A stretch of 41,990 nucleotides of DNA, from assembly GCA_022813865.1 (NCBI GenBank), contig JALDZX010000004.1, forward strand, positions 682,001 through 723,990, written 5' to 3'. This DNA comes from Xylographa opegraphella. Its lineage: Eukaryota. Within the stretch, counting starts at the first letter, position 1. Each line of letters starts with the position of its first letter. Positions 1,541 through 33,819 of this stretch are shown here, in pieces. Position numbers and translations under genes: made by a program. The notes under the pieces are model-generated. The model searched no databases. It worked only from the letters and a program-made list of their open reading frames with translations, and had not been told where the DNA came from.

Positions 1541-4500
1541 ATGCCTGGAACGGTGGCGGATGGGCCCACCGTTTCGCTTTCTTGTACGGCAAATGCTTTT
1601 GAACTGGGTTTTTCGAATACTAACAGTCCACTCGTAGTTACAAACAACTTCTGGGGCAAAGAAGATGCTGGGGTACAGCCCCTCCTGGAGCGCATGCATA
1701 ATGCGAAAGTCACTTCGGATGAATTGAAAGCTTTCTACAACTGTACGCTATTCCTTTGCGGTCACCAGTCATTTCAATACTAACTCACCCCAGCTCGAGC
1801 TGCCATCGAAGACGAATACGCGCGCAAGCTGCTGGGACTATGTCGCAAGCCATTAGGCTCATCCGAGGCGGGGTCCTTGAGAGCATCTCTGGATGTGATG
1901 CGTGGAGAAGTCGAGTCGATGGGCAAATCGCATCAAGCGATCGCTGGTCAGATGAAGAGCGAGCTGGAAGAGCCTCTGGCAGCTTTTGCCGGCGGAATGA
2001 AAGAGCGAAGGAAGATTGTGCAAGGCGGGATTGAGAAATTGTTGAAGATCAAAGTACAGCAGACACAGGTTGTCAACAAGGTAGGGAATCGTAACGACGC
2101 ATAGGTGCCGTGGGTTCAACTGATCGTGCTACAGACACGAGATCGATATGAACAAGATTGTCTTCGGATCAAAGGCTACCTTGCACAGGGTCATATGGTA
2201 ATGGGGCAGGAGGAACGGAAGAACAAGGCGAAGCTCGAGAAAACGCAAATTCAACTAGCCACCACAAGCAACGAGTATGAGGCTGCCGTGAAGGCTCTCG
2301 AGGAGACCACAGGGAGGTGGAATCGGGAATGGAAAGCAGCATGCGATGTTGGTTACAATCAAAAGGAGAGTAATGAGCGTTGCTGATACGTATTTAGAAA
2401 TTCCAGGACCTCGAGGAAGAGAGACTGGACTTCACGAAGAGTAGTTTGTGGACGTTTGCAAACGTTGCCTCCACCGTCTGCGTCAGCGATGATGCTGTAA
2501 GTTCTGGCTCCAAATGCTTCGGATACTAGCTGACATACTTCAGTCATGTGAGAAAATTCGTTTAGCACTGGAGAGCTGTGAGGTAGAAAAGGACATTGCC
2601 AGTTTCATCCAGGAAAGAGGAACTGGTCAAGAAATTCCAGATCCTCCAAAGTACATCAATTTCTGTCGTGGAGATATCAACGATTCCGCATCGGAAACAT
2701 CCGAAGATGATACCTACTCTGTTGCACAGTTCCAGCGGACTATCAATCCAGCGTTTCGCAGCTCCTCACCACAGCCATCCACCTTTGAGTCCCATCATGA
2801 TCCTCAATCCGAGCTGGCAATGCTTATGGGCCATGCTGATTCCAACCCTCCTTCGAGTCGAGAAGCGACAGTGACACCCCAAAAAGGTGCACAGCAGCCT
2901 CCCCCACAGCTAGACTATCGTCGGCAGGCACAAAATCATGCTCAGTACCAGCAGAATCAACAAAGCCAGCAGGTGGAATTGGCAACCGTACCGCACAATG
3001 AATATCCGACCGATGGTATGACTATGTTTTGTAGAACAGATGCGCCACCGTCAGAAAGAAGTTCTGCGCATAGTCCAGTTCGCCCATCGAGCCGAGATTC
3101 TCAGAGTGATTATTCGAACCCGACTTCGTTCTCTAGCATAGAACCACCAAGCGGGCATATCTCACCTACTAAACAGCTCCAAGGCACGCAGGTACCAGTA
3201 AGCCCTGTTAAGCAAGTCCAGAAGAGGCGAAGTGGCTTTTTTAGCAACAGTCCTTTCCGACGGAAGAGCAAGCACGAAAAAGACGCTCCGAGACCTTCGC
3301 GGAATACATGGGGCCCATCGAATGGCCGCAACACAGGAAGCACAAACCCTAGTCCTACCCGTCTAGGTATACAGTCTCACGACTTCGCCGCCGACCGATC
3401 CCACAGTCCAGAGCCGGCCGACCCTAGGGCGAATTTCCAGCTCAATATTGGCAACAACGTTTTTGATGTTGCTTCTCCAGACTCGCATCGCAAACCTCAA
3501 TCCTCCGCTATGCAATCCCATATGCAGGCCGAATTAGACCCGATTGCTGCAGCTCTCGAAGAACTCAAGGGGGTGACCAAGCAGTCCTCCACACGAGTAT
3601 CGGCTGACCGCTACCACGGTATTGCCACACCTGCACCGCCTGGTAGTAATACCCCAGTAGCGGCCGCTCAGCGTGGAACACCACCACCGTCCTACCATAG
3701 TCAGGAGAGCGTATCTAGACTAGGTGCACCAAAGCCAGCCTTTACCAGTGCTCAGATGCAGCAGACGACAAGAAAATACGTGAATCAGAATCAAGATATG
3801 TACGGCTCAGGGCAACTATCTAGACCGGGAACCAGCGGCGGAGTACCAAGAGCAGCAAGTCCATTGCCAATGCGAAGCACGAGTCCACGACCCGGATTTC
3901 AGGGTGGCCATGGGCAAGGCCACGGAAATCAGGGATACAGTAACACCACTGAACGAAGCGTCAGCCCCAACCCATACGTGATCGGAGGTGGCAGTTTGAC
4001 CATGGGTATGCAACCTCGGCCACGACAGGGGCAGAGCCAGAGCATGAGCCCTGTGAAACAAGGCTACGGTGGCTATCAGCGTCACACTTCCCCGAACGAT
4101 GTTCGGCGAGCCGCAAGTCCGCAGCCGCAGTATGGCAGACAGGAGCGACCGGCCAGCAGTGCTGGTGGTTCTGGAATGGCGATGCAGCTTTCTAATGGAG
4201 GACCAGGAATAGGTCAGCGAGGCAGAGATGATGGTGGGGGTAGACCCGTCAGCTACTATGGAGGCGGAAATGGTGGAGTTGGGGGTGGCGCATTAGGGAA
4301 CGGTGGAGGGATGAGAGGCGGACTAGATCCAGCAGCGCGGACGAGGAGTAAGAGCGTGGCGGATGGTCGTCAATTCACGAATGAGGGAAGACCCATTTTG
4401 CATTTTGGTAAGCCTTACCCCTTGCAATATACCTTGATCAATATCCCCTCTCCTGCTCAACGGCACTTGATCTGGAGAGACTTTTCTGACGACGATGACC

Positions 4501-14440: not shown

Positions 14441-15218
14441 ATGGCCCTGTAAGCCCGAAGCCTCCCTCTCGATCCACCACTCCGATATGGACTTGGGGCC
14501 GCGTCCTTTGGCACGGAGAGCGAGGTGGCTATTTTTCAAAATCACTGGGCTTCTCACTCACTCGTCGCTCGCGCTCTGCTCGACCTACCCTGCAACGTCC
14601 TTGGCCGGTAGCTGTGAGCAGGTACAGTAGTTGTCCCTTTGTGCGAGCTGCGTATCGGCGTCGATTTTCTCTACCTTCATTATAGGCAGCTGCAGCAAGA
14701 TCCACGAGCTCCTCCTCCTCTTCTTCTTCCTCTTCTTTTTCTTTTTCTTCTTTTTCTTCCAGCGTGACCACCTCACAAAGAACACCTTTATCCCCCCTAA
14801 CAACCACCCACTCCTTATCCCTCACAAAGCAATTGTACCCCCTTCCCCCCCTTTCCCTATTGTCCCCGTTCCCCCCCTCCCGCATATATCCCCCTCCCCT
14901 TCCTACCCGCCCTCCTTCCCTCCCAATTCGCAAAAGCCCCCCCNCTTACCCAAACCTCCTTACCCATCACACCCACCTACCTACCCACCCCATCCCCACC
15001 CAACCACCCCAACCATACCCCTCAGAGACATGCTCCTCTCCCTCCGCCTGCTGGCCCACAAGCTGCTGCGCACCGGCAGCGAGGTCAGCCTCGTCAACTG
15101 CCGCGACCTCGGCTGCCACACCTGCTTCGCGCGCGAGCGGGAGCGAGAGCGGCGCCGCAGCGGGCGGGGGAATAGGTTGCGGAAGCGGAAGCGGAGAAGG
15201 GGGACGGGGACCGAGTGA
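14441..15218 (+). CDS. candidate spliced microprotein (62-90 aa) with C-x4-C-H-x-C motif and Arg/Lys-rich tail
   Basis: Exons 14441-14448 (ATGGCCCT|GTAAGC), 14763-14834 and 15026-15218 have consistent phase-2 junctions. The last exon has near-exclusive G/C third positions. Internal ATG at 15030. Confidence 0.6.
14709..14760. repeat. polypyrimidine (CTC/CTT/T) low-complexity tract ending in a CAG acceptor
   Basis: About 50 nt of uninterrupted pyrimidines directly before the AG at 14761-14762. Confidence 0.85.
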
Positions 15219-15727: not shown

Positions 15728-17145
15728 CTACATCAGGCCGGCCCGCTCCAACACGTGGGCTTGCTGCATCTCGGGTATCTGCGAGATGTACTGCCTCGCA
15801 TGGTTCGCGTCAAAGCGCCAGATGCCGCCCGTCTTCTCCGCCTCGATTTTCTCGCCGATCGGCTTCGCGAGCCTGTCGAAGAGAGGGTCGTTTTGCTGTT
15901 TGACGAAGAACCACCGTTGCCATTCCACGCCTTTGGCCGCTTCTTTTTTGCGCATGTCACGCTGTTCGTTTTCTATCAGGCTCTTTTCGTGGTTGGTCGT
16001 GTCCATGTCTCCCTTTCGGATAGCCTGGACGACAGGAGCCCATCGGCGCTTCGCCTCCCAGACGCTGAGATGCTCTGGAGATGGGTATTGCAACGGTGTT
16101 ATAGCTTCGGGGTGGATGGAGTCGGCGCCTGCCCCGGACTTCTTGCTTCCCTTGTACATAGTGAAGCTGTTGCTCCACTGACCTTCTACCGAATACAGCG
16201 ATTCTTTCTCTCTCCCTTCTTGATACATGGTTGCCGTAAAGCTGTTCTTCTTTCCGCCAATCCAACCTTTGCCCGAATAATCGATTTTCGAGATGTAGCC
16301 GGTTGAGGAAACGATATAAGTTTTGTCGTTGAGTTCGACGAACGGGGTACCATAAATGAGTCCTTCGATATGAAGGGCTGGGATAGTGATCAGGTAGTCT
16401 TCATCAAATTTATCGAGACGGAGGAGCGCATGTCCGATTTGCTTGACGTGGATGGTGCGAGAGAACGAGGCTTTTTGAGCGTTGTAACCTTGCAGCTATG
16501 CATAATTAGCATGAACATGGTTTGACGTTGAAAGAGGAGCAGTTCTCGACATACCGTAATTCCATACTTCTCATTCCTGATGCAGTAGGCGGTGACAGGC
16601 GGATGATGGCTGGCGATCGATTAGGATCCTGCACGAGGCTCGATCTGAGTATACTTGCCTGACCTGCTCCGACACCAGTGTGGTCACCCCTGTCTCCCAA
16701 TCATCTTTCGCATCTTTGGCAGGTTTGACCAATACACTAGGCCACTGCCCAATATGAAGCTCCCCAAGAAACGGATTCAACGGCTTCTTCTCATTGCCCT
16801 CGCTATCGCTTCTGCTGCAATACTGCTGCTTCAAGGTGGTCAAGAACCATCTCAAGACCAGTTTCGCTCGCTCCTCTGGGGTTGTTCCCCTAGCAGGTGA
16901 GACAAAACTCGCTGGGTTTTCTGCCCAGTAACCCGAGAATTCAGTGAGGGAAATGGTGCCGAGTATGAAAGGCGGGGCAGTCAAGGAAGCAAGGTCGCCA
17001 TTGAACGAAGCTATTGACTTGGTAAATTTCAGCATTGTTCCGACAAGGATGGAGGGAGGTTTAAGGGTCTCACTCGGAGGAACGACGACCAGGAGCCTTT
17101 GTTCGCCGGAGAGACACCGGCGCCCTCGTCCTTTGACGACGACAT
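15728..17145 (-). CDS. oxysterol-binding protein, Kes1/Osh4-like
   Basis: MSSSKDEG...[37 protein letters not shown], and the OSBP fingerprint EQVS|HHPP. Introns 17018-17073, 16610-16658 (GC-AG) and ~16496-16554. Confidence 0.93.
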
Positions 17146-17501
17146 AATAGCACAAAAGCGACCGTGTTGAAATGGAGAGAGTTGAATGTCAGAAGAGGAA
17201 AAGGAAGTCGAGTCGTTTTACGTGCACACGAGGGATGTGGTCTTACGAAGGTTGACTCTGGCAGGTGTCTGCTTCTCATGTGGTTCGCCCAAACGCAATC
17301 TGGTGGGGGGCTTTCGCCTCTGCAAAGCGTCATCGCGGGACAGCTCCCGTTTCTGGGCAGGTTCCAACCTTGATTCAGCCTTACATCCCGACGACGATGT
17401 TGACATCACTGACACGGTCACTCATCACCATTGCATCTTCGTTTACGGAGTACGGATTGTCTGATAGTGTATACATCATTTATTTATGGATTAGAGCAAG
17501 G

Positions 17502-19142
17502 TCATCTATTCCAAACCTTCCCGCCTTCCTTCTTCTTATTCCAAGGGTCGCTGTGCAGGGCCCAGCCCCTCGCTCGCTTTGCCTCCCTCTTCTCTCCCAT
17601 TTGGGGGTTTGGGATCCCCTCGTCTTTCTCTTCCATTACATGCATCCTGGTCATCTCTGCCGGCGCTCCCACGTTCAACTTCCAACCGCTCTGTCCCGGC
17701 AGAGGGTCGTCCTTCGCCAGCATGTGTAGATACCACAGCGCCAGACAGGCCGTCAGCCCTTCCTGCGTCCTCAGCTCGATGGTCGGCGCAAGGTCCAACG
17801 CTCCGAAATACGGCCTGTCGTTCTCGTCCGTCGTCGCGCGTACGCAGACAAGCTCGGTCTCCGTCATGATCCACCCATAGCGGCATTTGTGCTCTCGCAT
17901 ACACCATTGCAGGTGCGCGAGCCCCTTGAGATACAAGATTTTCCTGTGAGGAGCTTCGAGGCGCATCCCGGTGTTCCACCGCTCGTAGGACTTGACCAAG
18001 CCAACGACACGACCAAGTCCGTTGCCTTGCAATGTCTTCTCTTTATCGTCTTGATAATTAGAAATGAAATGGGGGCCCTCACGTTGATTCACCATGCGCA
18101 TTGCCACATAGCGAAAGGCGTTGATGGTAATCTTTGAGGCCGCGTTGATTTTGAGCATATAAAAGTCGTGAACAATCTTAATAAGCTCGCTTTCGGAGAC
18201 TGGATGAAGTCTCTGCTGCGTGATAAAAGGTTTTGGAAATGCGGTCGCGTTTACTGGTAAACTCAGAAAATTAGGAAAGGAAGGTATCTCCAGGATACTT
18301 TCTAGATTGAAGTCCTCCCAGCAGAGTAAGTTTCGAATGTCCCACCAGAAATGCTGATGGACGCCACGCCCCTGAACGTCGCTCACTTGGCGAACAATGC
18401 TGGGTTGGGGATTTGGGGCACGCATGTATTCGTTCAGTGTCATTGTTGCCTCGTCCGGTGCCCCAACTTGTAGCTCTTCTGGAAGGTCGTACGGCAGATG
18501 GCTGTACCTCAATACAGGTGACGGAGGCACATAAATAGAAGATCCCGGCAAAACAGACGGACTGTAGTATCCACCGCTGACATAACTTGGTTGACCACGG
18601 TATGGATACCCGTATCTGCCCAGGGTGGCGTCGTCAATACTTCCAGCAGAGATGGATCTTGAATGACCCAGATTCCGCCGCAACGACGGTGTTATAGTGA
18701 TCGGTGACGCAATTGCAGAGTTCACACCGGAGCTCAAGCCAGATCCGAGTGTTGAGGTTGCGGAAAGAGGCGAGATGAGAGATATGCATTCGGGAGGGCT
18801 GGTAGAGCTCCGATACGGAACTGGTCGTGCTGACTTCGTACGAGTAGGTGGGGCAGCTACCTGCGATACTGCCCTGCGGTGAAGCTTGGAGGTTTGATAC
18901 AAAGGTTCGAAATACTGATCCTGTGTCCGTATTTTGGGAAGTAGTGTAGGTCCAAGTTGTTGTTGGACAGGAGATCGGTCGCGGGGAGTCCGGGCATGGT
19001 TGTCAACCGATTCCGGTGATGATTCGAAGGTACAGATAGAGGCACCTGAGACATTTCGACTGTGGCTGCTGCCACCAACTAGACCTGGAAGGTCTGCTGC
19101 TGGAGGCGTAGCTGGCTGGTATGAGTACGGTGTGAGGGGCAT
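17502..19142 (-). CDS. conserved fungal hypothetical protein: Ser/Pro-rich N-half and globular C-terminal domain
   Basis: Long intronless ORF (ATG at 19142) with HFWWDIRN, RVVGLVKS, CRYGWIMTETELVCVR and LALWYLHML segments. Confidence 0.85.
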   Translation of the reverse strand: MPLTPYSYQPATPPAADLPGLVGGSSHSRNVSGASICTFESSPESVDNHARTPRDRSPVQQQLGPTLLPKIRTQDQYFEPLYQTSKLHRRAVSQVAAPPTRTKSARPVPYRSSTSPPECISLISPLSATSTLGSGLSSGVNSAIASPITITPSLRRNLGHSRSISAGSIDDATLGRYGYPYRGQPSYVSGGYYSPSVLPGSSIYVPPSPVLRYSHLPYDLPEELQVGAPDEATMTLNEYMRAPNPQPSIVRQVSDVQGRGVHQHFWWDIRNLLCWEDFNLESILEIPSFPNFLSLPVNATAFPKPFITQQRLHPVSESELIKIVHDFYMLKINAASKITINAFRYVAMRMVNQREGPHFISNYQDDKEKTLQGNGLGRVVGLVKSYERWNTGMRLEAPHRKILYLKGLAHLQWCMREHKCRYGWIMTETELVCVRATTDENDRPYFGALDLAPTIELRTQEGLTACLALWYLHMLAKDDPLPGQSGWKLNVGAPAEMTRMHVMEEKDEGIPNPQMGEKREAKRARGWALHSDPWNKKKEGGKVWNR

Positions 19143-20720
19143 AATGGCCAAGCTGAGCCTGGGCTAACTAGGACGGCGCACATTTAGCTTCAGCAACTTC
19201 ACCCAATGGACAAGAGATTGTCTAACCTGATAAAGGGAGGGTATGAAGCTCTAGATAAGGTATTAGATTGGGAGACCAGCTCCAGTGATTAGTCTATGGC
19301 AAGTGATAGTAGGAAAGAGAAAGGAGATTCGTACAGAACACTATAGGTTCAGGTCATTCCGAGATATATTGAGAAGCACAACGGGGAGAGAAAACACGGC
19401 GATGACGGCCATACTTATCCTCCACGAACACCCGGGTGGTGAAGAGGATAACCTGAAACATCAACACGGGTCTGACAAGAAGCTTCACTCAAAGTGTACA
19501 TGAAACGCAGACAAGAGGGCAGACTAGACAGGGTAGATGGCGATCAAGAGACTCGGAAAGGCTAGTAAAGATGTGAAGCTTCCCAGAAGGGTCTCAGATA
19601 TCGCGCGTCAACGCGGAGCTGGTCCGAAGCGAATGCTATTTTCGGCGGTCTGTAGCGGGCGTTTCTACGAAACTGGCCGGGCGGTACTCCGTAGGGCAGT
19701 GAATTGTGTCGATGTGGCCAAAAAGGACTCTGTCGGACACGGGGATCGGATCTCAGACACGGTCTGGCAGTGTACATACGGCGACTACAATGTTGGGCCT
19801 AAGCTTCGTCTCATCTTGGCAGGCGCCCGGCCACATTGCCAGGTCATGGCCGGAACCACAGCATACGGGCACGCGAAGTCGACTGTTTCGACGTGAGGGA
19901 GGCGCGTGGAGAAGTTTGTTGAAGGCGAGGAGGATGGTGTTGAGCTACGGCGCGGCGCGTACAGCGTCCAAAATAGCTCCCGGTCCCGTGATTGGTTTTG
20001 CCGAGAGACGACGACTAGGCTCTACGTACTCTAGTGTAATGCTAAGGGCTGCCTACGGCTGAAAATAGATAAGCTCCCTGCAGGACCTGGATGACGTCGA
20101 AACAGATCTCTCGGTGAGTCATCCCATCGGCACGCTCCCATTGGCCCGTCGCCCTCATCCTCCAGCGCAACTACAAACATCGTCGTATTACCTTGGGTAG
20201 GATAATGTACCTACCGTACCTTACTCAACGTGCGAAAGGGACGCGCTCGTTGATACCAGCCACGTCCCACGTACGTCCCGTCTCTACACGTCCAGCGCGT
20301 TCCTTGTAAGCGGCATTGTCAACTTTGCGGTCTGTTCCCTCAATGCACGTGTTTGCATTTCATGCTACATGTGAAAGAGGCGAGGATGTTGTTCTGAACT
20401 TCCCCACAGTATTGTTGTCATGCTATCTCGTTGTATCTGGTTGTTGATCATAAGCATAAGGGAGACTCCTGGCTGAAGCAACTTATGTAACATTGCAATC
20501 GCAAGATTATTACTTGATCAGCAATGCAACGTCTCTCATTGGCGCACTGCTGGAGGTTGTGGGTGATGAAGATTCTGTGCAACCTGGTAAGCCAGCATCG
20601 GTACGGTGATAGCAGATAGTGAGAAATATGTCTCGATATGCATGAAATACTCGCTATATATTGCAATGCTGACGTTACTCTACCTCTCGATCACTTTTGA
20701 GGACTTGTGAGCTGCATAAG

Positions 20721-22358
20721 TTATCCCGTCGTTGCTTCCACATTCAATGCCCACCATTCTTTCCATTTGACAACTCGCTTGGTCAGTCTTGCCTCTTCTG
20801 CGGCGAACACCATGGCATGACTTCTGATGACGTCTTCCAGGCTGCATCCGACATGTACTTGTTGTGCTTCGGCCACGTTCATATGTCCGCCCCTAACAGC
20901 GCTTACGGCCTTGACGAACTGTTGAACAAGTCCTGCGTCGCCTCCTCCGTGGCCTCCTCCGGGCTGGGGAGGGTAATATACTTTTGCCTCACGAGTCGCA
21001 AAGTCGTAGACCCGGATCATTTTGCTATCATACTCAATCTCTCCTTGTGAACCATATATCCTGCCCCTTCTCTCACATTGTTTCTCGGTGAAAGCTATCA
21101 TGTGAATGGATGCGGTCTTCGATCCCCTGCTTCTGCTGGATGAAATGCCATCTTTGTAGATAGATTCCTCCTCCCAAGTCATGGTCACCAGTTGGTCATC
21201 GCAAACGTCATTATTCGACTGCCACACGCATCTACCAAACCATGGACGGACATCAATATCCTCTTGCGGTGTAGCATCGTCGTAGTCCTCTGCTAGACGT
21301 TTCAGAAGCTTTGTCTCGGCGAAAGGCATCCCCTGGGTGACCAAGCAGTCTTCAATCTCTGCATCCACCACATTTACGGGCCACCCTGTCAACCCTCTAG
21401 CTAAGTGGTGTTCATCATAGATCTTCTTGGCACTGTAAATGCACTTATCCTCAATGGGGCACGAAAGACAATTAGTTGCTTCTTTTGCTCCTGGCGGCTT
21501 CCTGGATTTCGTAAAGAATGAAAGATGTCCGGCAGACGAAACATACGCCGGTAGATGTGGAGGATCCTTGGATGAGATCGGGGTGGAGCAGAGTAGCCAA
21601 AGAACAAGGTCAATATCGTGACATGACTTCGTCAGCAAGGATGGCGCTGTCGTCGATTCCTTCCGCCAATTGCCCCTGCATTCGATCAGTTTTGCGATTC
21701 ATCACAAAACCACCACCTACCGGACGTAGCTGTGAGAGAAATGCCACCAGCCAACAGGCTCTGTGTGTTCAATAGATATCACGTCCCCGATGACCCCATC
21801 TTCCACGAGTAGCTTCCTGAGTAGCATATTATGAGGGCTGTATCTCAAAACATGGCCAATCGAGAACACGGCTCGCGGCTGTTCTAAGCTCGGAGTCTTC
21901 AGCGAGCGGTAGATAGCCAGACAATCATTCAGTGTGGTCGCCAGAGGCTTTTCACTCATCATGTGCATGCCCAGAGGGGCCAGTGCCGTGATGATCTCCA
22001 CATGGGTTTCATCGAGCGTGCACACAAAGAAACCATCGTAGCCTGGTAATGCTGTCTCACTTTCCCCGGCTTCAACTCGTTTTCTACGACTGATTTCATA
22101 CTTGAGAAAGGCTTTCCAGTCTTCAAACTCTTGGCCATGCTGTCTGTCACCATCGTGCCAGATATACTTCTTACCTAGAACTTCGCGCTTGAAGGGGATG
22201 GGTTCCGCGACCGCTGCTATAATTGCCGTCGTAGATGAGGTTACCGCATTGGCGTAGGCATTGCCCCGAGATCCGGCTCCTATGATGACGAGGCGTATGG
22301 GATGCCTTTTCGACAGGAGCTCAGCTTCGTCTGTCTCGTTCAAAATTTGATTCACCAT
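20721..22358 (-). CDS. Gfo/Idh/MocA-family NAD(P)-binding oxidoreductase (StrI-like)
   Basis: IIGAGSRG Rossmann motif, SEKPLA, IGHVLRYSP, HSYVR|GNW (intron 21676-21720), LLTKSCHDID and GHGGGD. Confidence 0.92.
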
Positions 22359-22574
22359 GTCTACGATTTAGCGTTCTATAATTGGTGATGTTCATGAGAA
22401 ACGCAGGAATCGGAAAGTTGTGCCATTTCATGCACGTTGGCCCGTTCCTCTCGTTCACACCACCACCACCTCTGAAACAAGGGTTAGTTCCGACCTGTTT
22501 GGACAGCTTAAAGCTGATCTGGAGACTTCAGACCAAAAATAGTAAATCGCTCACCCCGTTCAGGATTTTTCTCA

Positions 22575-23206
22575 ATGGCTACGACAAGTTCGCATGATCC
22601 CCTGGTCTGGATAGATTGCGAGGCACTTCCACCATCACCACCTCGTCGGACAAATTTGCCACTGACGAGAACTAGATGACAGGCCTCAACCGCAACGACG
22701 ACACCATTATGTCAATATCATGTTTCATCACTGATGCAAAGCTCAACCTTCTGGATGTTGATGGATTTGATACCATCATCCATCACGAGAAATCTGCTCT
22801 CGACAGAATGGACGATTGGTGCACAAGAACTCATGGGGAATCGGGCCTCACGGCCGCGTGCATAACCTCGGATACTAGACCAGAAGTAGCGGCTGCTAAT
22901 CTTCTCAAGTATATCCAACGCTTCGTGCCGCAGCCGCGAAAAGGTCTGCTTGCCGGAAACAGTGTGCATTGTGACAAGGAGTTCTTAAGTAGGCCGCCTT
23001 ATGATATTGTGATGGCGCATTTGCATTACAGGATCCTTGACGTCAGCTCGATCAAGGAAGCAGCTAGGAGATGGGCGTCCAAAGATATCTTAAGAAAAGT
23101 ACCGATGAAGAAAGGGCTCCATCAGGCCAGAGAAGATATTCTAGAAAGTATCGAGGAGGCACGATTTTATGAAGAAGTGTTTTTTAGGCCGTCAAATAGC
23201 CAATAG
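22575..23206 (+). CDS. REX2: oligoribonuclease (Orn/Rex2, DEDDh exonuclease)
   Basis: PLVWIDCE|MTGL across GC-AG intron 22623-22675, plus THGESGL, LAGNSVHCD, LHYRILDVSS and HQAREDILESI. Confidence 0.92.
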
Positions 23207-23320
23207 TAGGGACAATTATGCAATTCGATGCTCTAGGATAGAAAGCTATGGTTCTACTTCTGCTAAACTTATTGCCCTGCCTATTCGTAACTCTGCTATT
23301 ACCATCATTGATTCTTGTCT

Positions 23321-23440
23321 TCATTTGAAGTGCTGTACAATCTCTTCTAGGCCTCCCGCTTGAGCCGCCTCCAGAGCTGTATCGTATTTTCGCGCTTTTC
23401 CATGGAGATCTGCCCCTTCTGAAAGCAGAAATACAAAAGC
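23321..23440 (-). pseudogene. ankyrin-repeat gene remnant
   Basis: FLLSEGADLHGKARKYDTALEAAQAGGLEEIVQHF matches the fungal ankyrin repeat pattern, but there is no credible upstream CDS in the gap before the PGM gene. Confidence 0.55.
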
Positions 23441-23989
23441 CAATTGAGTGTGCATGCCCATTGAATGAGAAAACCCTGGAATCTCAAAAGAGACTACGGG
23501 GCTGCAAACGGTGTATGGCAGAGATTTCGTACATGAAATTGGCTGGCTGAGGAGTTTGTACCCACGGCCACGGCCGGCGGCTGACTTTTGCATGAACTGG
23601 CAGCAGACGTTCGAGTGGGTTGTCCTTAACAGATGACGAAGGGCATAGTGGCAACATGTGAAGAATAGGTAGCTATGGCGCAAACTTAGGAAATGCAATC
23701 TCGTGAACAATACTCCATTCGGCTATCAATAATATGAATAACGAAAAGGTCGGATGTATTGGGCAACGCTAGATAAGAGTCCCGTACGGAGTAGTAAGGT
23801 GGACTAAAGGTATCCTAGTCTAGAAATCGGGTCCGGGCCGAGAGTGCCCGACATGACACCGAAGTGCCTGGAGAAAGTTAATAACCCCGCCATCTCAACA
23901 ATTTCACAACGAGACTGTTTGTCGCAGCTCATTACATCCGCCCCGTTTCTCTCCAGTACCCAATCAAAGAGAAGCAAACAATTGCAAAT

Positions 23990-25808
<1,819 letters not shown>

Positions 25809-26418
25809 AGGTAGAGCTGCAAAAGTTATATGAGAAATGATCGTTGGAACGGGATATCGAGACGCGGATATAATGCTCGACCTCAACCAAATAGCTTTCG
25901 TATTTACCACTTTTATAGACATATGAGATCAATATTACTTCTAAGATATATCGGACAATCAACGACACATGTGTCCTATTGGGTGACTCCGTTAGCATGA
26001 CACTACTTGCGTGCGGAACTAGCATGCTTCTTTTCACAGGAAAGGGGGTTTGCAAGCTGAAAGTGTTACGGTAAGTCCTTTTACGAGTCTGCGGAAACAC
26101 AGGATGACGTCCGCATCCAGTTATACATGCAGTACATCTTTTTGCAGCCATTGGAGCGTGATTCGTGCAAACTTTCAGCTTGTTTCCCTTCAGGACCTAA
26201 AGAGCGTAAAGGGTTTGCTCGGAAGACCCGTGTCAAACAGTACCTTTCATGGTCGGCATGGGTATCGTATCAAACGCCGTTACTTATGCCAGAAAATGAT
26301 TCCCAAGGCCCCCACCCCATAGTAGCCAGACCGCCCGTTTTTTTTTGTAACCTCACAAATGCCCATACTGTCTAATGATGATATCCAAGTCCACGCCAAT
26401 CATACCAGAGAGCGCCGT

Positions 26419-29399
26419 TTAGGAAGCGCCCTTAGTCGGTCTATAAGCATCATACGCTAGTGGTTGTTCCTCGTCCTCGGCTCCAGGTACACCCACATAC
26501 CCGCTGCCGCCAGTGCGCCACCGCTCCAGTCCCAGCTGGCCATACTCACTCGCACCATCATGAAAATAATCCGCCCTCCCAGGCTCTTCCGCCACGCCCA
26601 CAGACTGTACACCAGCTAGTAGGCCTCTATTACTTTCGCTATCATTACCATGGGTGTAAAATCCCCTTCCTCTGGCATTGGTGGCGACATCACTGTCGTA
26701 ACCACCGCCCCTGTATGGAGAATACTGCCTGCCTGTAATAGAGGCCGGTGCTGGACTATTTGCTCTGCTACTCAATCCAGGGCCGCGAGCCGCAGAAGGG
26801 GCGGGTGTCTGTACCCGGTCATACAATTCTCCACCACCGCCGTATTCGCTGCTGAAAGCTGGGTCATTTTTATAGAACGCGAAGTCGAGATTTGCCTCCG
26901 GAACAAATTTAAACATGCCGCCAGCTATTGCACTCGGCGCTGGTTTACCAGGCTCGACTGATGACATTTGACCCATGGCTATGTCGGAGTATGCCATTGT
27001 AGGGGCACTGGGTGAATCAAGACGGCCTCCATAAATATTTGCCAGAAGATGTTCGGCGCTCTCGTGTACCATAGGAACAATCAGTGGTTGGTATAGGGCT
27101 GGATTCCCAAACCTATTTCCGAGAGTAGTGTTTTGAGGGAGCTTCATACCCACATTAGAGATTGCTTCAGGGTCTTTGTTGATGAAACCTTGAACATAGT
27201 ATTGGCATTGGTCATCGAAGGACTTGCTGCAATAGACCTTGAAGCCTAGCAAAATTATGGGAAGAGGTACCATACAACCGAGCATGGTCCAGCTTCCAAA
27301 TGCAGCCTTGATTACAAGCGCTGCAATACAGTTAGCTAGAAAGGTTGCGAACAATACGCGGTTAAAAAGGACGTTCCAGAATTGACCCCCAGATTCGGTC
27401 TTGGTGATGAACACATAAAGCAAGAGGTATTTCTTCAACCAACAGTCAATAACGAAGTAAAGGAATGTTACTGGAAGCACGATCGGTTGGATCGTCGCAT
27501 AACAGAGGGATACTGTTGAGTAAAACAGGAAATAGTTGTAGTAACTTGCATAGTCAAAAGAAGGCGGCGCCGTCCAATCGATTGTCTGGCGAGGCGTTGG
27601 GTGCATGAAAGTTCGAGCAAACCAAACCCAAGTCAGGTTGATAATCTGAGCTAAATCCACAGCTGCCCCAAGATTACGCTGCAGGAGCCATGTGACCCAG
27701 AACGGGGAAACAGTACAGAGAGCAACCATTATCTTCGAAGGGAGATCGCCTGTGTTGATAGCATCCCATACACTTTCGTTACCGTTTCGACTGCCTATTA
27801 CAAGCGTGACGAACGACCATATGCCGGAAACGGTGGAAAAGACAACTAAATTGTTGAAAACGAAGAACGCATACAGCCGGTGCATAACGTGATGCTCACG
27901 CGATGTCTTGGTCATATCTCCCGCTCGAATTTGTAGACGTCTAAAAACGATTGGTAATAGCAAGTAGACTAGTGACGTCAGGCCTGGTGCAGCGACAGCT
28001 TGGACAGCAGCCCAAGTGGTTGGATTCGAATCGAAAGTCGCAGCGAAGGCAGGCCAGACAGCAGACAGATTGGAAAGCCGGGTAAGGAATACGGCGATCA
28101 TCGCATTAGGGGCAATCCAGACAACGGTCAGCAATGCTACCCAGATGTTGTTCATAAATCTTTTTGCTTTCCGGCTTCCTTTCGCTAGAGCCAGGTTGTC
28201 CCATATGAGATCATTTGGTTTGGGTGCGAGCTTGATTGAGACCCCTTCGGTACGATGCTTTCGTGCGGCATATGCAACAGCGTGGGCCTCTTCAACGGAC
28301 CGGTATGTGGCAAATCCGTACGGCATGGCTTCGCGACGAGAGTTATATTCATCGCCCACTTCTGCACGCACGCCATTGATCTTTGCTTTAAGACCAATAA
28401 TCCGCTCGGTCAGGTAGTCAATGGCATCAATCTGTCGGCCTTGACTAGTTTTGCGGTCATTTTTCGATGGTCGCAACATAGGTCGTGACGCAGGTAATTT
28501 GTCGGGATTTTTAAGATACTTTGCAAGGATGGATTCCAGTTTTCGTACTGACTGGCTATGTTCCTCCATGAGCTCAGGAAGGTCCTTTACCTTTCGCGCT
28601 ATCACCGCTGAAGGCGTGCCAGCGGTTCCTTTGACAGCCTCTAAAATCCCGATCAAACCGGAACCAGACCTTGCATGCTGTGGAAGGTCCTCCAGCCAAA
28701 CTGTCCTAGAATGTAAGCTGGTTCGATATTCTGAGGTCTCGAAGTATAGTCTCTTTAATCTCGCCACGGCTCTGTAGTTCCTCCACAGGAAAAAGACGAT
28801 GGTGATGTCGAAAACCCATGTGCATACAACATGGCTCCACATTGGGTTTCCTTCAAGGACATATTGGGGTGTCATCGTTGCAAAGGCCCTCTGGGTAGGA
28901 GACCCGGTAGGATAGTTCGAGGACTCGAAGATATGAACCGGTATCAGAACACCGCAGCCCACGATGCTAAGAACGAGAAAAATGTTTCGACACATTTTGG
29001 TGAAGCGTAAGAAGATAACAGCGTCCATCCCAACCTTTTCCACTAATTGATCTTCGTGCGTTGTAATCAGGGGTGAAAACCATGCAAAAAGGCCCTTGCC
29101 GATTGGCGGCGGAGCATGTTTTTTGTCGGCATGTTTCAATTTGGGCGCATATACAGTGGAGTTATGGGGTCGGAGGAGGGAAAAGAATAGGGTAATGACC
29201 AGCATGCTGCCAATGGAGGTGCCCAAGGCGATCCATAGCGTATCTGCTTGGAACTGATGAAAGCACGAACGATAAGCACAGGCCTTATGGATAATTATAT
29301 CCCTGGATTTACCTGATACGCAAATGAAGCCTGCAATGCAGTAAGAAAAGTATTTCCTGTTTGCCGCCGGGCAATGGTGATGCCATCCTTCGGATCCAT
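26419..29399 (-). CDS. OSCA/TMEM63/CSC1 (DUF221, RSN1/PHM7-like) calcium-permeable stress-gated channel
   Basis: Exon 1 (MDPKDG...FAYQ), intron 29254-29312, then VYAPK, GMDAVIFLRF, LAPKPNDLIWDNL and ESGGQFW with multiple TM helices. Confidence 0.92.
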
Positions 29400-30604
29400 G
29401 ATCCCCGCAAATGGAGTGTATGTCAAGACAAATATGAACTAGGCCTAAGAGAAAGGACTATCGGAATGGCATCGAAGAGGACAAAGCCTGGAAAACGCCG
29501 ACGAGATGTTTCGATACTGCTCGTGCAATGTTGCTTGGCACGTGTCGGTATGGAACCAGGGGATGCAATGAACTCCTAAAGAATGAAGACTCGTAGCCAA
29601 GGAATCGAAGATCTCCGCCCACCACTGAACAAAACGAGTGTTGTCCCAAAGAAAAGAAAGGCAAATAAAGAAAACGTGTTGAGAAGACTGTCTTTTTCCA
29701 ATAATGTTTGTTGGGGTTCCGCGATTCGACTCATCCCTGTAAAGATCGACGTCAGAGCAGCCTTTGCCGAGAAGCTTATTTTGGACAAACGAAGACATTC
29801 GATTGGCTCGTCAACAAGATCTGCGCGTGCCACTCGCGCTGTCCTTGGTACAGCTTATTTCAATCAATCAATCAGACATCAACTCCTTACGCGTCAAGGA
29901 AACAAGGTATAAACCAATGGGAAGGTCAACAAACCAATGCCTTGTAATATAGGCTGTGGCAAGTATCAGACTCTTCAAGTACGTGCTGCTTCTCGATATC
30001 TGGACGCAATGACATGAACATGTTCGTACCTTGATGCCGGCGCGGAGAAAATATCTGTACGAAATAGGCCGATTGATCGAATTGGTCAAACAATTGGAGT
30101 TAGAGGGGCGAGATGAGGAGCGTGGATCTGCGAGAATGGCGTATGGCACAATACAAGATCTGAGAGGGAAAATCTACAGTTTTGAAGAGAGAGGCAGTCA
30201 AATTGTGGTTGTCTTCCAGAGCGCGGACAAATGGTAACTTCATGCGAATAATTATATGCCGTGGAATGCATACTGGTATCGCAGCTGAATTTGCAAAATC
30301 TTGTAACCACTCTCCTTTGAAGTCGTTTGAACATGGCTAGGTGAAACTCTTTTAATCACGACGAACGCTAAGACTGTCAGCGATGACCTGAGGTTGAATA
30401 TGTATTTTCAGCTCCTAATGCGTGAAACCTATATGCCAAATCTTAGAACCACGTCCATAGATGCAGTCTGTCGCCTGCCGGGTTTCACCACCTGCATTTG
30501 ATACCATTTGCAAAAACACTGTAAGCCTTTGATCTACCATATAGCGCTCTTTTGCCATTTCCGCATTGCTTGAGTCCACGGTCAAGTCCAAGTATTTGAC
30601 GCCA

Positions 30605-31266
30605 TCAAAATATGCTGTCAAACACACTCCCTCCACCATCCAACCTAGTGGCTTCTTTCCTGAGCACATCGGCGCGGAATTTCTTGAAGGCCGTCTCGAT
30701 TCGTGCCCTCGACTCTGGATCTCGTGAGATGGAGCGAGTTGCAGAATACGTCCCTGTCAGCAAACCGGTCTCGCCGCCAAGAAACAGGCCACCGGCGGAG
30801 AAGAACAAGTAAGCCGCGACATCACCGAGAGTGGTTGGCTGCAGTAGGGCTGTTATATCCGGTATAGGTTCTGTCGGTTTGCGAAACGCAAGATATCAGT
30901 CTATATAATGTTTCCCATTCGATGCAAACGGCAGAACAGGTTATGCTGAGGCGACAAGGAAGAAGGCAACATCTCAGGAAACCCACCAGTCCTGCCATCA
31001 GCGAACTGCACCTTCACCGGCTTTTCTCTCGCCCGAAACGCATTGAACATCGTGGTTCGTGCAGACCGTACCCGATACGCCAAGAAGATCCCCAGGCCTA
31101 GACCGACAAGAGAGCCAATGTTAGCATGAGTTGAGAACTTCGATGCAGCATTGCGGAGTGCATCACGGTCAGACTGTCGCAGGTCATGCTGCATGTGCTC
31201 TTCTGCAAGTTTGGAAAGCTCATCGCTTTTGGACTTGCGGAACGCCGCTATGGATTCAGAAGACAT
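30605..31266 (-). CDS. conserved fungal two-TM hypothetical protein
   Basis: Two exons joined by intron 30871-30986 (VQFADGRT|EPIPDIT), with two Gly-rich hydrophobic segments. Confidence 0.8.
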
Positions 31267-32530
31267 TGGAAGAAAGGTTATAGGATGGATCGAAGCAGAA
31301 CAGTTTAGGTCAAGCACGCAGAGAAAAGATGGGAAGCCGGAATATATACGAACGACGAATGCTAGCTCTCGCTCGCCGGGGAATTACTCATACACTATTG
31401 TTGTCGAAGAGTCGCGGAAATTGGCGGCTGTGACGTTTGTGGTCCGTATGCACCGTAGCTGACTAAATTATTGAATGTAGATTCACCCAATCAGAGCAGG
31501 TTTTAAACAGTATCGAGAATGGGGTGGCTGGCTGCGATTTACATCTTGGAGAAACCACTCTAAGGATGTCGCTGGGAATCGAAAGTTTATTATATAAAGG
31601 CATATCTGATCCTGTAGCTCGCGGATCCATGGCGTTACTCCGTATCTTCGCAGCACGCAGTTTCTGTCTCACTAGGTCGAAGCCGGGATTCAACTATCCT
31701 ACTCCGAGTGCCAAAAAAGATGCTCTCTTGTGTCTATGCCCCTCTTGTTTCAGTACGTCCGGGTTTCGTATATCTTGACTCGAGGAGAACTTCATTTGGA
31801 GCTCCATGATTTACACTAGCGTATCTACACCGTCAGGATCAAATGCGCCGCATATTGTTAAAGCCATCGAACTTCTGATGAGCGAGGTTTTAAACTCCTA
31901 CAGTAACCCACAAGAACGACATAACGGAAGATGCAAGCTGTTCGCCCGTCTCATGTATTGTTGAGAATGTCGCGAGTTCGTACCTTATTGGCCGACAGAG
32001 ACGGACCCATGATGATGTACTAACACACAGACTCGAGTCTGGGAAATGCCGTGCGCCTCGCACACAAGACGCACGTACGATGGATGCGTCGAAGTTTTCA
32101 AACTCAAAGGCACGAAACAACATGCACGAACTTTTCATTAGAACATCAGACAAGGGCGAGCATTTCCGTCGGTTTTTGGGCCCCGAAGCCGGCGAGAGGC
32201 CAATGTAACTCCATATCAGGTCACGATAATGACATGTCATGAGAGGTGTGGAAGTATGGATATTCAAGGCAGGGGACCGGACACTTTGCTTGAGCCTCAA
32301 GCAGACGAAGTTGAAGGCAGTACCCATATGCAAGCGCCGGAGCGTTGAACCAAAAATCAATGAAGTGCTGCTAGTCCTGCTGATCGCCTTTCGAGTCAAT
32401 GCGAAGCTTTCAATTTGATAGGCCAGCGACATGGTCGGGGATCGAGCCGATTTCACAGACCACTTTCATTGAGAACGTGAATAGATCACGCATTGTCATC
32501 CTAAGAACATTCAGAGTCCCTGAGATTCTC

Positions 32531-33819
32531 TTACAGTTGACCTGCAGTATTGAAGTCCTCAAGGCCCTCCGCTACGCGTGCAGACATTGTCTTCTCACCC
32601 TCGCGCACCCATACTCTCGGATCAAAGTATTTCTACCATCAGTGTCAGCATCAGCATGTACAATTAGTTCGTGGAGCTTGCCTTGTTAGGCTTGTCTTCC
32701 CCTTCAGGATTTCCAACCTGCGTCATGATATAATCCTTCTTCTTTAGCACGTAATCCCGGATTCCTGTCAAGTACGCATACTGCAAATCGGTGTCGAGGT
32801 TGACCTTTACAACACCGTAACCGATCGCTTTGGTATACTCTTCTTTGCTAGAACCAGATCCCCCGTGGAAGACTAAAAACACTGGCTTATCCTCCTTGGC
32901 ACCAATCTTGTCCTTAACATATGCTTGGTGCTTACCAAGCAGTTCTGGGTGCAGCTTAACATTCCCAGGCTTGTAAACGCCATGAACATTTCCAAAGCCG
33001 GCAGCAATGGAGAAGTATGGACTAATCTTCACGAGGGTACTGTAGATGTGATAGATGTCTTCGGGCTGAGTGTAGAGGGAGTTGTTGTCGACGTCCTCAT
33101 TGTTGACGCCGTCTTCCTCACCTCCAGTGATGCCGATTTCCTGTCAAAATAGTCAGCGATTCGGCGAACATTATTTGTCAACTGGACATGATACCATCTC
33201 AAGCCATTGTTTCATCGGCGCTGCACGTTTGAGATATTTCGCGGTCGTCTGGACGTTCCATTCGACCTCCTCTTCCGAAAGATCAATCATGTGACTTGAG
33301 AATAGCGGCTCGCCGTGCTTTTCAAAATACTTCTCATCCTCGGTCATCATCCCGTCTAGCCATGGAAGGAGCTTCTTGGCGCAGTGATCTGTGTGGAGGA
33401 TAACCGGAATGCCATACGAGGGAGCGACCGCGCGAATGTAATGCGCTCCAGCGATAGCACCAGCAATTGAAGCTTCCTGATCCCCATTTTTGACACCCTG
33501 TCACCAATTTCAGTTGCGAGTACCCTCAGCGAAGACAACTCTGCTACCTTTCCAGCAAAGTAAGCAGCACCGCCTTGGGACATCTGCAGGATTATGGGAG
33601 CTTTTTTATCCCGAGCAGCTTCGAGAGCCGCCACCACCGTGGAGGAGGACGTGACATTCTGGGAAGTATCAGCAAATTCGCATTATTGATTTCTGTATTG
33701 CTCGAAGCACAGACTATGGCAGGAATAGCGAATTTGTGCTCTTGGGCATAGTTGAAGAGGTGTAGCACATCATCTCCGACGATGACACCAGTCTTTCGTT
33801 TCAATACGCCTTGCGCCAT
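32531..33819 (-). CDS. FBA1: fructose-bisphosphate aldolase class II
   Basis: FAIPAI|NVTSSST, LHTDHC, HMIDLSEE, EM|EIGITGGEEDGV, FGNVHG, FHGGSGS and KPNK|KYFDPRVW. Four introns; the last (32633-32681) is GC-AG. Confidence 0.97.

Follow-up and report, generated by a model that had tools for sequence, protein, structure and literature searches.

GC-AG introns in three genes of a Xylographa-type lichen fungus: an estimated share of about 3% of introns alongside canonical spliceosomal RNA sequences

The window, by which we mean the whole analysed stretch of 41,990 nucleotides, lies at the end of contig C176 in a genome of 24.7 Mb and 241 contigs. Three of its genes contain an intron with a GC donor: an OSH4/KES1-like gene of the oxysterol-binding-protein type, the gene for REX2/oligoribonuclease, and FBA1, which encodes a class II aldolase (32531-33819, minus strand). 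An open frame of about 1000 codons (26422-29457, minus strand) presumably encodes a CSC1/OSCA-type membrane channel, and a single N lies at about position 15190, in a low-complexity stretch.

The OSH intron (16610..16658, minus strand) is 49 nt long, lies in phase 2 and has a strong donor (CAG|GCAAGT..CCAG); the gene model described below calls it with a posterior of 1.0, as it does the next intron of the gene, an ordinary GT-AG one (16496..16554, minus strand). In REX2, on the plus strand, the first exon of 16 codons (22575..22622), 88% identical to the matching part of the homologue P0122, carries what we take to be the first catalytic D-x-E motif. It is followed by a 53-nt, phase 0 intron placed by homology (22623..22675, GAG|GCACTT..CTAG) and by exon 2 (22676..23206), which has homologues in PF00929. 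The third GC-AG intron is the last one of FBA1 (32633..32681, minus strand; 49 nt, phase 0, AAG|GCAAGC..GTAG, posterior 0.99). Each of the three contains a CTRAY-type branch-like element, and their combined acceptor and branch scores are 4.4, 6.9 and 8.0 (median of the scored introns, 6.3). Minor (U12-type) introns are recognised through an RTATCCTT donor and the U11/U12 snRNAs; none of the three GC donors fits this motif.

Removal of the introns restores the conserved motifs EQV-S-HHPP in OSH, WIDCE-MTGL in REX2 and KPNK-KYFDPR in FBA1, and in OSH the PF01237 match reaches the last residue before the GC donor. The only GT alternatives in the same frame within 60 nt upstream would cost 5, 6 and 12 residues, including the motif. 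The preliminary description of the window had claimed three motif-forced GC-AG introns, and its coordinates, GC..AG ends and motif restoration all hold. Their presence is thus confirmed by protein homology, from which we infer that they are also spliced in vivo.

All four donors of FBA1 are off-consensus: besides the GC donor, two lack G at +5 (TG|GTATCA, 33141..33194, posterior 1.0; AG|GTAGCA, 33498..33547, posterior 0.99) and one reads TA|GTCTGT (33659..33714, posterior 1.0; all on the minus strand), which is odd for a glycolytic gene with high expected expression. The protein is 99% identical to those of relatives, and its best matches among named proteins belong to the lichen-forming ascomycete Xylographa. 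In six named Xylographa species, Lambiella and Agyrium, FBA1 is annotated with 359 aa and an intact KPNK-KYFDPR, whereas P0242, which matches the window where compared, is a 326-aa partial protein ending exactly at the GC donor. P0242 is thus the only one of these proteins in which annotation overlooked the intron, which suggests a GT donor in the relatives. A search for the orthologous intron in metagenomes gave one match, an intron-less sequence of the spliced type, and thus no relative's donor; among 120 homologues, none was a read-through revealing the donor.

The REX2 donor (AG|GCACTT) is weak and lacks G at +5, but the 3' end of the intron, with branch site and acceptor, is strong. The gene model does not call this donor; at −0.12, its score falls short of the 10th percentile for donors called with confidence. 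In four homologues from other fungi, read-through at the same position continues with valine, a GTN codon; the intron position is therefore old and has a GT donor in these fungi. In P0122 (85% identical) the junction is joined and the donor is not visible in the protein. Exon 1 is missing from all eight Xylographa annotations examined, which could reflect a shared weak donor or merely a short exon. For frequent GT>GC turnover, proposed earlier as an explanation, these two genes offer hints only, namely the GT donor of REX2 in other fungi and the FBA1 intron missed in P0242.

The gene model supports about 28-30 introns in the window, in agreement with the earlier count of about 28; among the 31 called at p>0.5, one wrongly takes the place of the REX2 intron and two or three are doubtful. 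All five GT donors that had been singled out as odd are called: the three in FBA1, GTGGGT in a small unnamed gene (30871..30986, minus strand, posterior 0.87) and GTTGGT (2348..2397, plus strand, posterior 0.90). The probability of at least 3 GC donors among 28 introns is 0.003 at a rate of 1% and 0.043 at 2.8%. The window differs from the genome sample introduced next with p=0.042 (Fisher), a value not adjusted for the fact that the window was itself picked for its GC introns. The genome holds about 590 such windows, and at 2.8% some two dozen of them would be expected to have at least 3 of 28.

To estimate the GC-AG rate, we used 80 non-adjacent 10-kb stretches from 11 contigs of the same genome (800 kb) and a self-trained, splicing-aware hidden Markov gene model, trained on this sample and the window. 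The +2 base of the donor was left free, so that GA and GG serve as decoys; when hexamers were simply counted, with no gene model, background drowned the signal. The counts were made without the window, by a model that has no UTR introns and had missed the REX2 donor. The expected numbers of donors were 601.4 for GT, 17.35 for GC, 0.7 for GG and 0.0 for GA, corresponding to 2.8% GC; at p>0.5, 14 of 599 donors were GC and at p>0.9, 10 of 503. Switching the 14 GC donors to GT brought the estimate to 0. Spiking with 1, 3 and 10% GC returned 0.28, 2.85 and 9.5%, the lowest spike thus being recovered too low, and a GC-specific donor matrix gave 2.96%. The model found 160 of 240 spiked GC donors at p>0.5 but just 87 at p>0.9, which gives sensitivity-corrected rates of 3.0% and 3.9%, respectively.

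An independent estimate came from a pattern search of the whole genome (donor, 22-38 nt, RCTRAY, 6-11 nt, YAG). It yielded 804 matches for GTRAGT, 176 for GCRAGT and 240 for the GA+GG decoy GRRAGT. With the decoy scaled by hexamer frequency, the GC background is about 100 and the excess about 76, compared to 745 for GT. Of the first 30 GC matches, the gene model accepts 7 (p≥0.79), and of the 9 that fall in the sample it accepts 4; on this basis about 50 would be genuine. Taking RAGT to occur in 26% of GT donors and in 50-80% of GC donors, these figures convert to a rate of 2.1-5.0%. A reversed-pattern control gave 139 for GC, which would shrink the excess to 37, but it is a poor background because the reversed decoy count (339) exceeds the forward one.

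We also compared the pieces flanking 28 GC candidates outside the window with Pfam. Most had no usable match on either side; in two, the model continues exactly across the GC intron, in a ubiquitin-conjugating enzyme (L023:6151; UQ_con, 102 to 104 with residue 2) and in a Git3-type receptor (L077:620; Git3, 89 to 91). One-sided support was found for a few candidates, in an MRS2-like transporter (L113:1501), a MutS protein (L118, 1501, minus strand; MutS_V) and a BTB protein (L038:5305). Several of these further introns have no AG before the donor.

By these two routes we estimate that GC-AG introns make up about 3% of all introns, with a plausible range of 2-4%. The elevated use of GC-AG introns proposed earlier is thus upheld in kind, being above the textbook 1%, but not in extent: the 11% seen in the window is excluded genome-wide, because a 10% spike was recovered as 9.5% and the real sample gave 2.8%.

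It is possible, though unlikely, that the genome is an ordinary one with about 1-1.5% GC-AG introns, that the model over-calls GC donors and that the window is a correspondingly rarer chance cluster. Held-out flanks of 42 loci (129 kb), with the central selected GC site dropped and five overlapping or duplicate loci excluded, had 0 GC donors among 102 (expected sum 1.1), which pulls the rate toward 1-2%, although these flanks are biased slightly toward GT. Sample and flanks pooled give 14 of 701, or 2.0%, with a confidence interval whose lower bound is close to the ordinary value (1.1-3.3%), and the 10 GC donors among 571 at p>0.9 do not clearly exceed 1% (p=0.07) as long as sensitivity is left uncorrected. 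In addition, three of the 14 GC calls at p>0.5 are in long or doubtful introns (110, 185 and 270 nt). Over-calling is difficult to reconcile, however, with an expected decoy count below 1 and with the estimate of 0 after the switch of GC to GT; the recovery of only 87 of 240 spikes at p>0.9 means that the raw counts are too low, and the genome-wide excess independently yields at least 2%.

Many GT donors had also been described as far from GTRAGT. In 493 confident GT donors, the base frequencies are A68/G19 at +3, A50/T24/C18/G9 at +4, G88 at +5, T65 at +6 and G51 at −1, and they agree with the published consensus of Fusarium core genes (A74/G16, A42/C32/T22, G93 and T66, with G53 at −1; PMC5677156), being no more degenerate. 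GTRAGT makes up 26% of these donors, against about 23% implied by multiplying the Fusarium position frequencies, so we rejected distance from GTRAGT as a sign of relaxation; the odd GT donors of the window are the normal tail of the distribution. G at −1 is found in 46 of 60 donors without G at +5, compared to 204 of 433 others (p=1.5e-5); pairing on the exon side and on the intron side commonly trade off in this way.

The GC donors pair better with U1 outside +2: the 10 confident ones have 5.75 matches on average, whereas the 493 GT donors have 4.80. The 87 recovered spikes average 5.0, and the difference from these (p=0.003) is larger than detection bias would explain. In the window, the OSH donor has 7 matches and the FBA1 donor 6. 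REX2, with only 5 and no G at +5, is the exception to this compensation.

Among the 41-48 candidates scored in each snRNA search, we found at least three U1 genes, two with a canonical 5' end and a third that is canonical after removal of an intron, and at least one U6 gene, with ACAGAGA present. The branch-pairing sequence of U2 and loop 1 of U5 are normal, as is the length of U4. Inspection of the U1 5' end and the U6 ACAGA box, suggested beforehand as the place to look for a change, therefore revealed canonical sequences in both; together with the near absence of GA and GG donors, this speaks against the unusually tolerant U1/U6 recognition that had been considered. Genes for a METTL16-like protein (PF05971) and SNRNP27 (PF08648) are present; both proteins are reportedly connected with the preference at donor position +4 (abstract of PMC10581693).

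A 5' splice-site step made truly tolerant by a protein change (U1C, Luc7 or Prp8) rather than by an snRNA, with at least 5% GC-AG introns and weak donors missed by our model, would accommodate the REX2 donor that the model cannot see, the 5.0% reached at the upper end of the pattern conversion, the four off-consensus donors of FBA1 and the eight annotations without REX2 exon 1. We nevertheless consider it highly unlikely, as spikes with GT-like, and thus weaker, contexts were 95% recovered in the 3% and 10% tests, training the donor matrix on GC lifts the estimate only marginally, the GT donors are as regular as those of Fusarium, and GA and GG remain near zero. It is extremely improbable that an assembly error or a disabling mutation accounts for any of the three GC donors: full-length FBA1 in relatives and its truncation in P0242 would fit a change private to this genome, but good-consensus GC donors recur on many contigs while GA and GG ones do not, errors would not favour C, and the flanking exons are intact and conserved.

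Our preferred reading, which we hold to be probably correct, is that these are U2-type GC-AG introns spliced by canonical machinery, that they account for about 3% of introns, and that their accumulation in the window is a chance cluster. They would be ordinary major-spliceosome introns that have acquired C in place of T at +2. Canonical U1 would recognise such donors with one mismatch and hand them on to canonical U5 and U6, the lost pair at +2 being offset by a better match elsewhere in the donor. In introns of about 50 nt, a strong nearby branch site and acceptor would help, possibly through intron definition. GT>GC changes would then persist wherever the context is strong enough, perhaps by drift.

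The estimate is about three times the fungal mean for GC-AG introns, 1.009% (PMC7072748, Table 1), a mild excess that is high yet within the known fungal range. Per-species shares in this source run from 0 to about 6%, but they are annotation counts that pool GC-AG with AT-AC, obtained by a different method than our model-based value. The percentages we computed from its File S9 are 2.06% for A. niger, 2.21% for C. neoformans, 2.53% for P. nodorum, 2.65% for Botryobasidium and 4.99% for Pochonia, the same range as our estimate; nine fungi picked as better-annotated examples extend from 1.07% (Neurospora) to 4.99% (Pochonia). We noticed no name of a lichen fungus in this table. Elsewhere, GC-AG shares are given as 1.0-1.2% for ascomycetes, with basidiomycetes reaching up to 3% (PMC4500085, citing Rep et al. 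2006 for euascomycetes) and, from RNA-seq, as 0.02-2.97% (PMC6176087).

The closest counterpart is the U2-type GC-AG introns described in euascomycetes (PMC4500085), which share with ours the GC donor, CTRAY, YAG, a length of about 50 nt, the stronger donor context and a tendency to be overlooked by gene finders. They differ in their rate of about 1%, compared to about 3% here, where even the weak donor GCACTT is included (PMC4500085, PMC7072748). We are not dealing with a new splicing system; GC-AG introns were already known in euascomycetes. In Eurytemora affinis and Oikopleura dioica, GA-AG introns are commoner than GC-AG ones and a changed U1 has been hypothesised (PMC7072748, Figure 5). 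Our genome resembles these species in having non-GT donors in housekeeping genes, but differs from them in that GG and GA are near zero (0.7 and 0.0 of about 620), GT accounts for 97% of donors and U1 is canonical. Relative to lineages with relaxed donors, the non-GT share is small (about 3%), GA and GG are not used, and the U1 5' end and U6 box are unchanged. The completed literature searches found no report on splice sites in lichens, though one may exist.

A practical consequence is that GC-AG introns break automated annotation, as seen in FBA1, cut at 326 aa, and in REX2, deprived of its first exon, so that intact genes may be scored as partial when the gene content of these lichens is studied. 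If the threefold excess is true, with canonical snRNAs, it would add one more data point to the variation of GC-AG rates among fungi. Donor turnover should be easy to follow, since several Xylographa species have been sequenced. As a speculation to which we assign a low probability, the true GC-AG rate of Xylographa-type lichen fungi might be 4-5%, higher than in any other filamentous ascomycetes, with rapid GT>GC turnover from species to species, working weak GC donors and canonical snRNAs, in which case introns in the U1 and U5 genes would point to looser fidelity or more reverse splicing.

Introns in snRNA genes were less to be expected than GC-AG introns, and they are relevant to the idea that introns are gained by reverse splicing. 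The third U1 copy has a 62-nt GT-AG intron (L003:1441-1502, plus strand; C57:51661-51722) in the middle of the sequence that pairs with the 5' splice site. Its seemingly changed 5' end had made it a candidate for a variant U1 pairing with GTCTG donors, which we rejected, as the copy is a canonical U1 with an intron. It shares its TATA box and an upstream promoter motif with an intron-less U1 copy. The sole U5 among the candidates scored is interrupted at the 3' edge of loop 1 by a GT-AG intron of 52 nt (L128:1568-1619, minus strand; C171:22069-22120), which has a good branch site and whose removal restores loop and stem; if this is the only copy, U5 production must depend on its splicing. Introns have been described in U1, U2 and U5 genes of Rhodotorula hasegawae and in U6 of many fungi (PMC5855946, PMC5832005), and those found here, within the 5' end of U1 and at loop 1 of U5, are of the same kind. 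In the parts of these sources consulted, introns in U1 and U5 genes are cited only for Rhodotorula (PMC5855946), and U3 and U6 alone are named as often interrupted (PMC5832005).

A degenerate second U2-like sequence (L132; C206:22025-22132, minus strand) has about 32 extra nucleotides directly following the branch-pairing region, with donor-like and branch-like words and no clear acceptor, and is possibly a decayed intron-bearing copy. Finally, two U1 genes and the U2 gene (L001, L003, L131) have in common, upstream of the TATA box, a motif about 25 nt long that is probably an snRNA promoter element.
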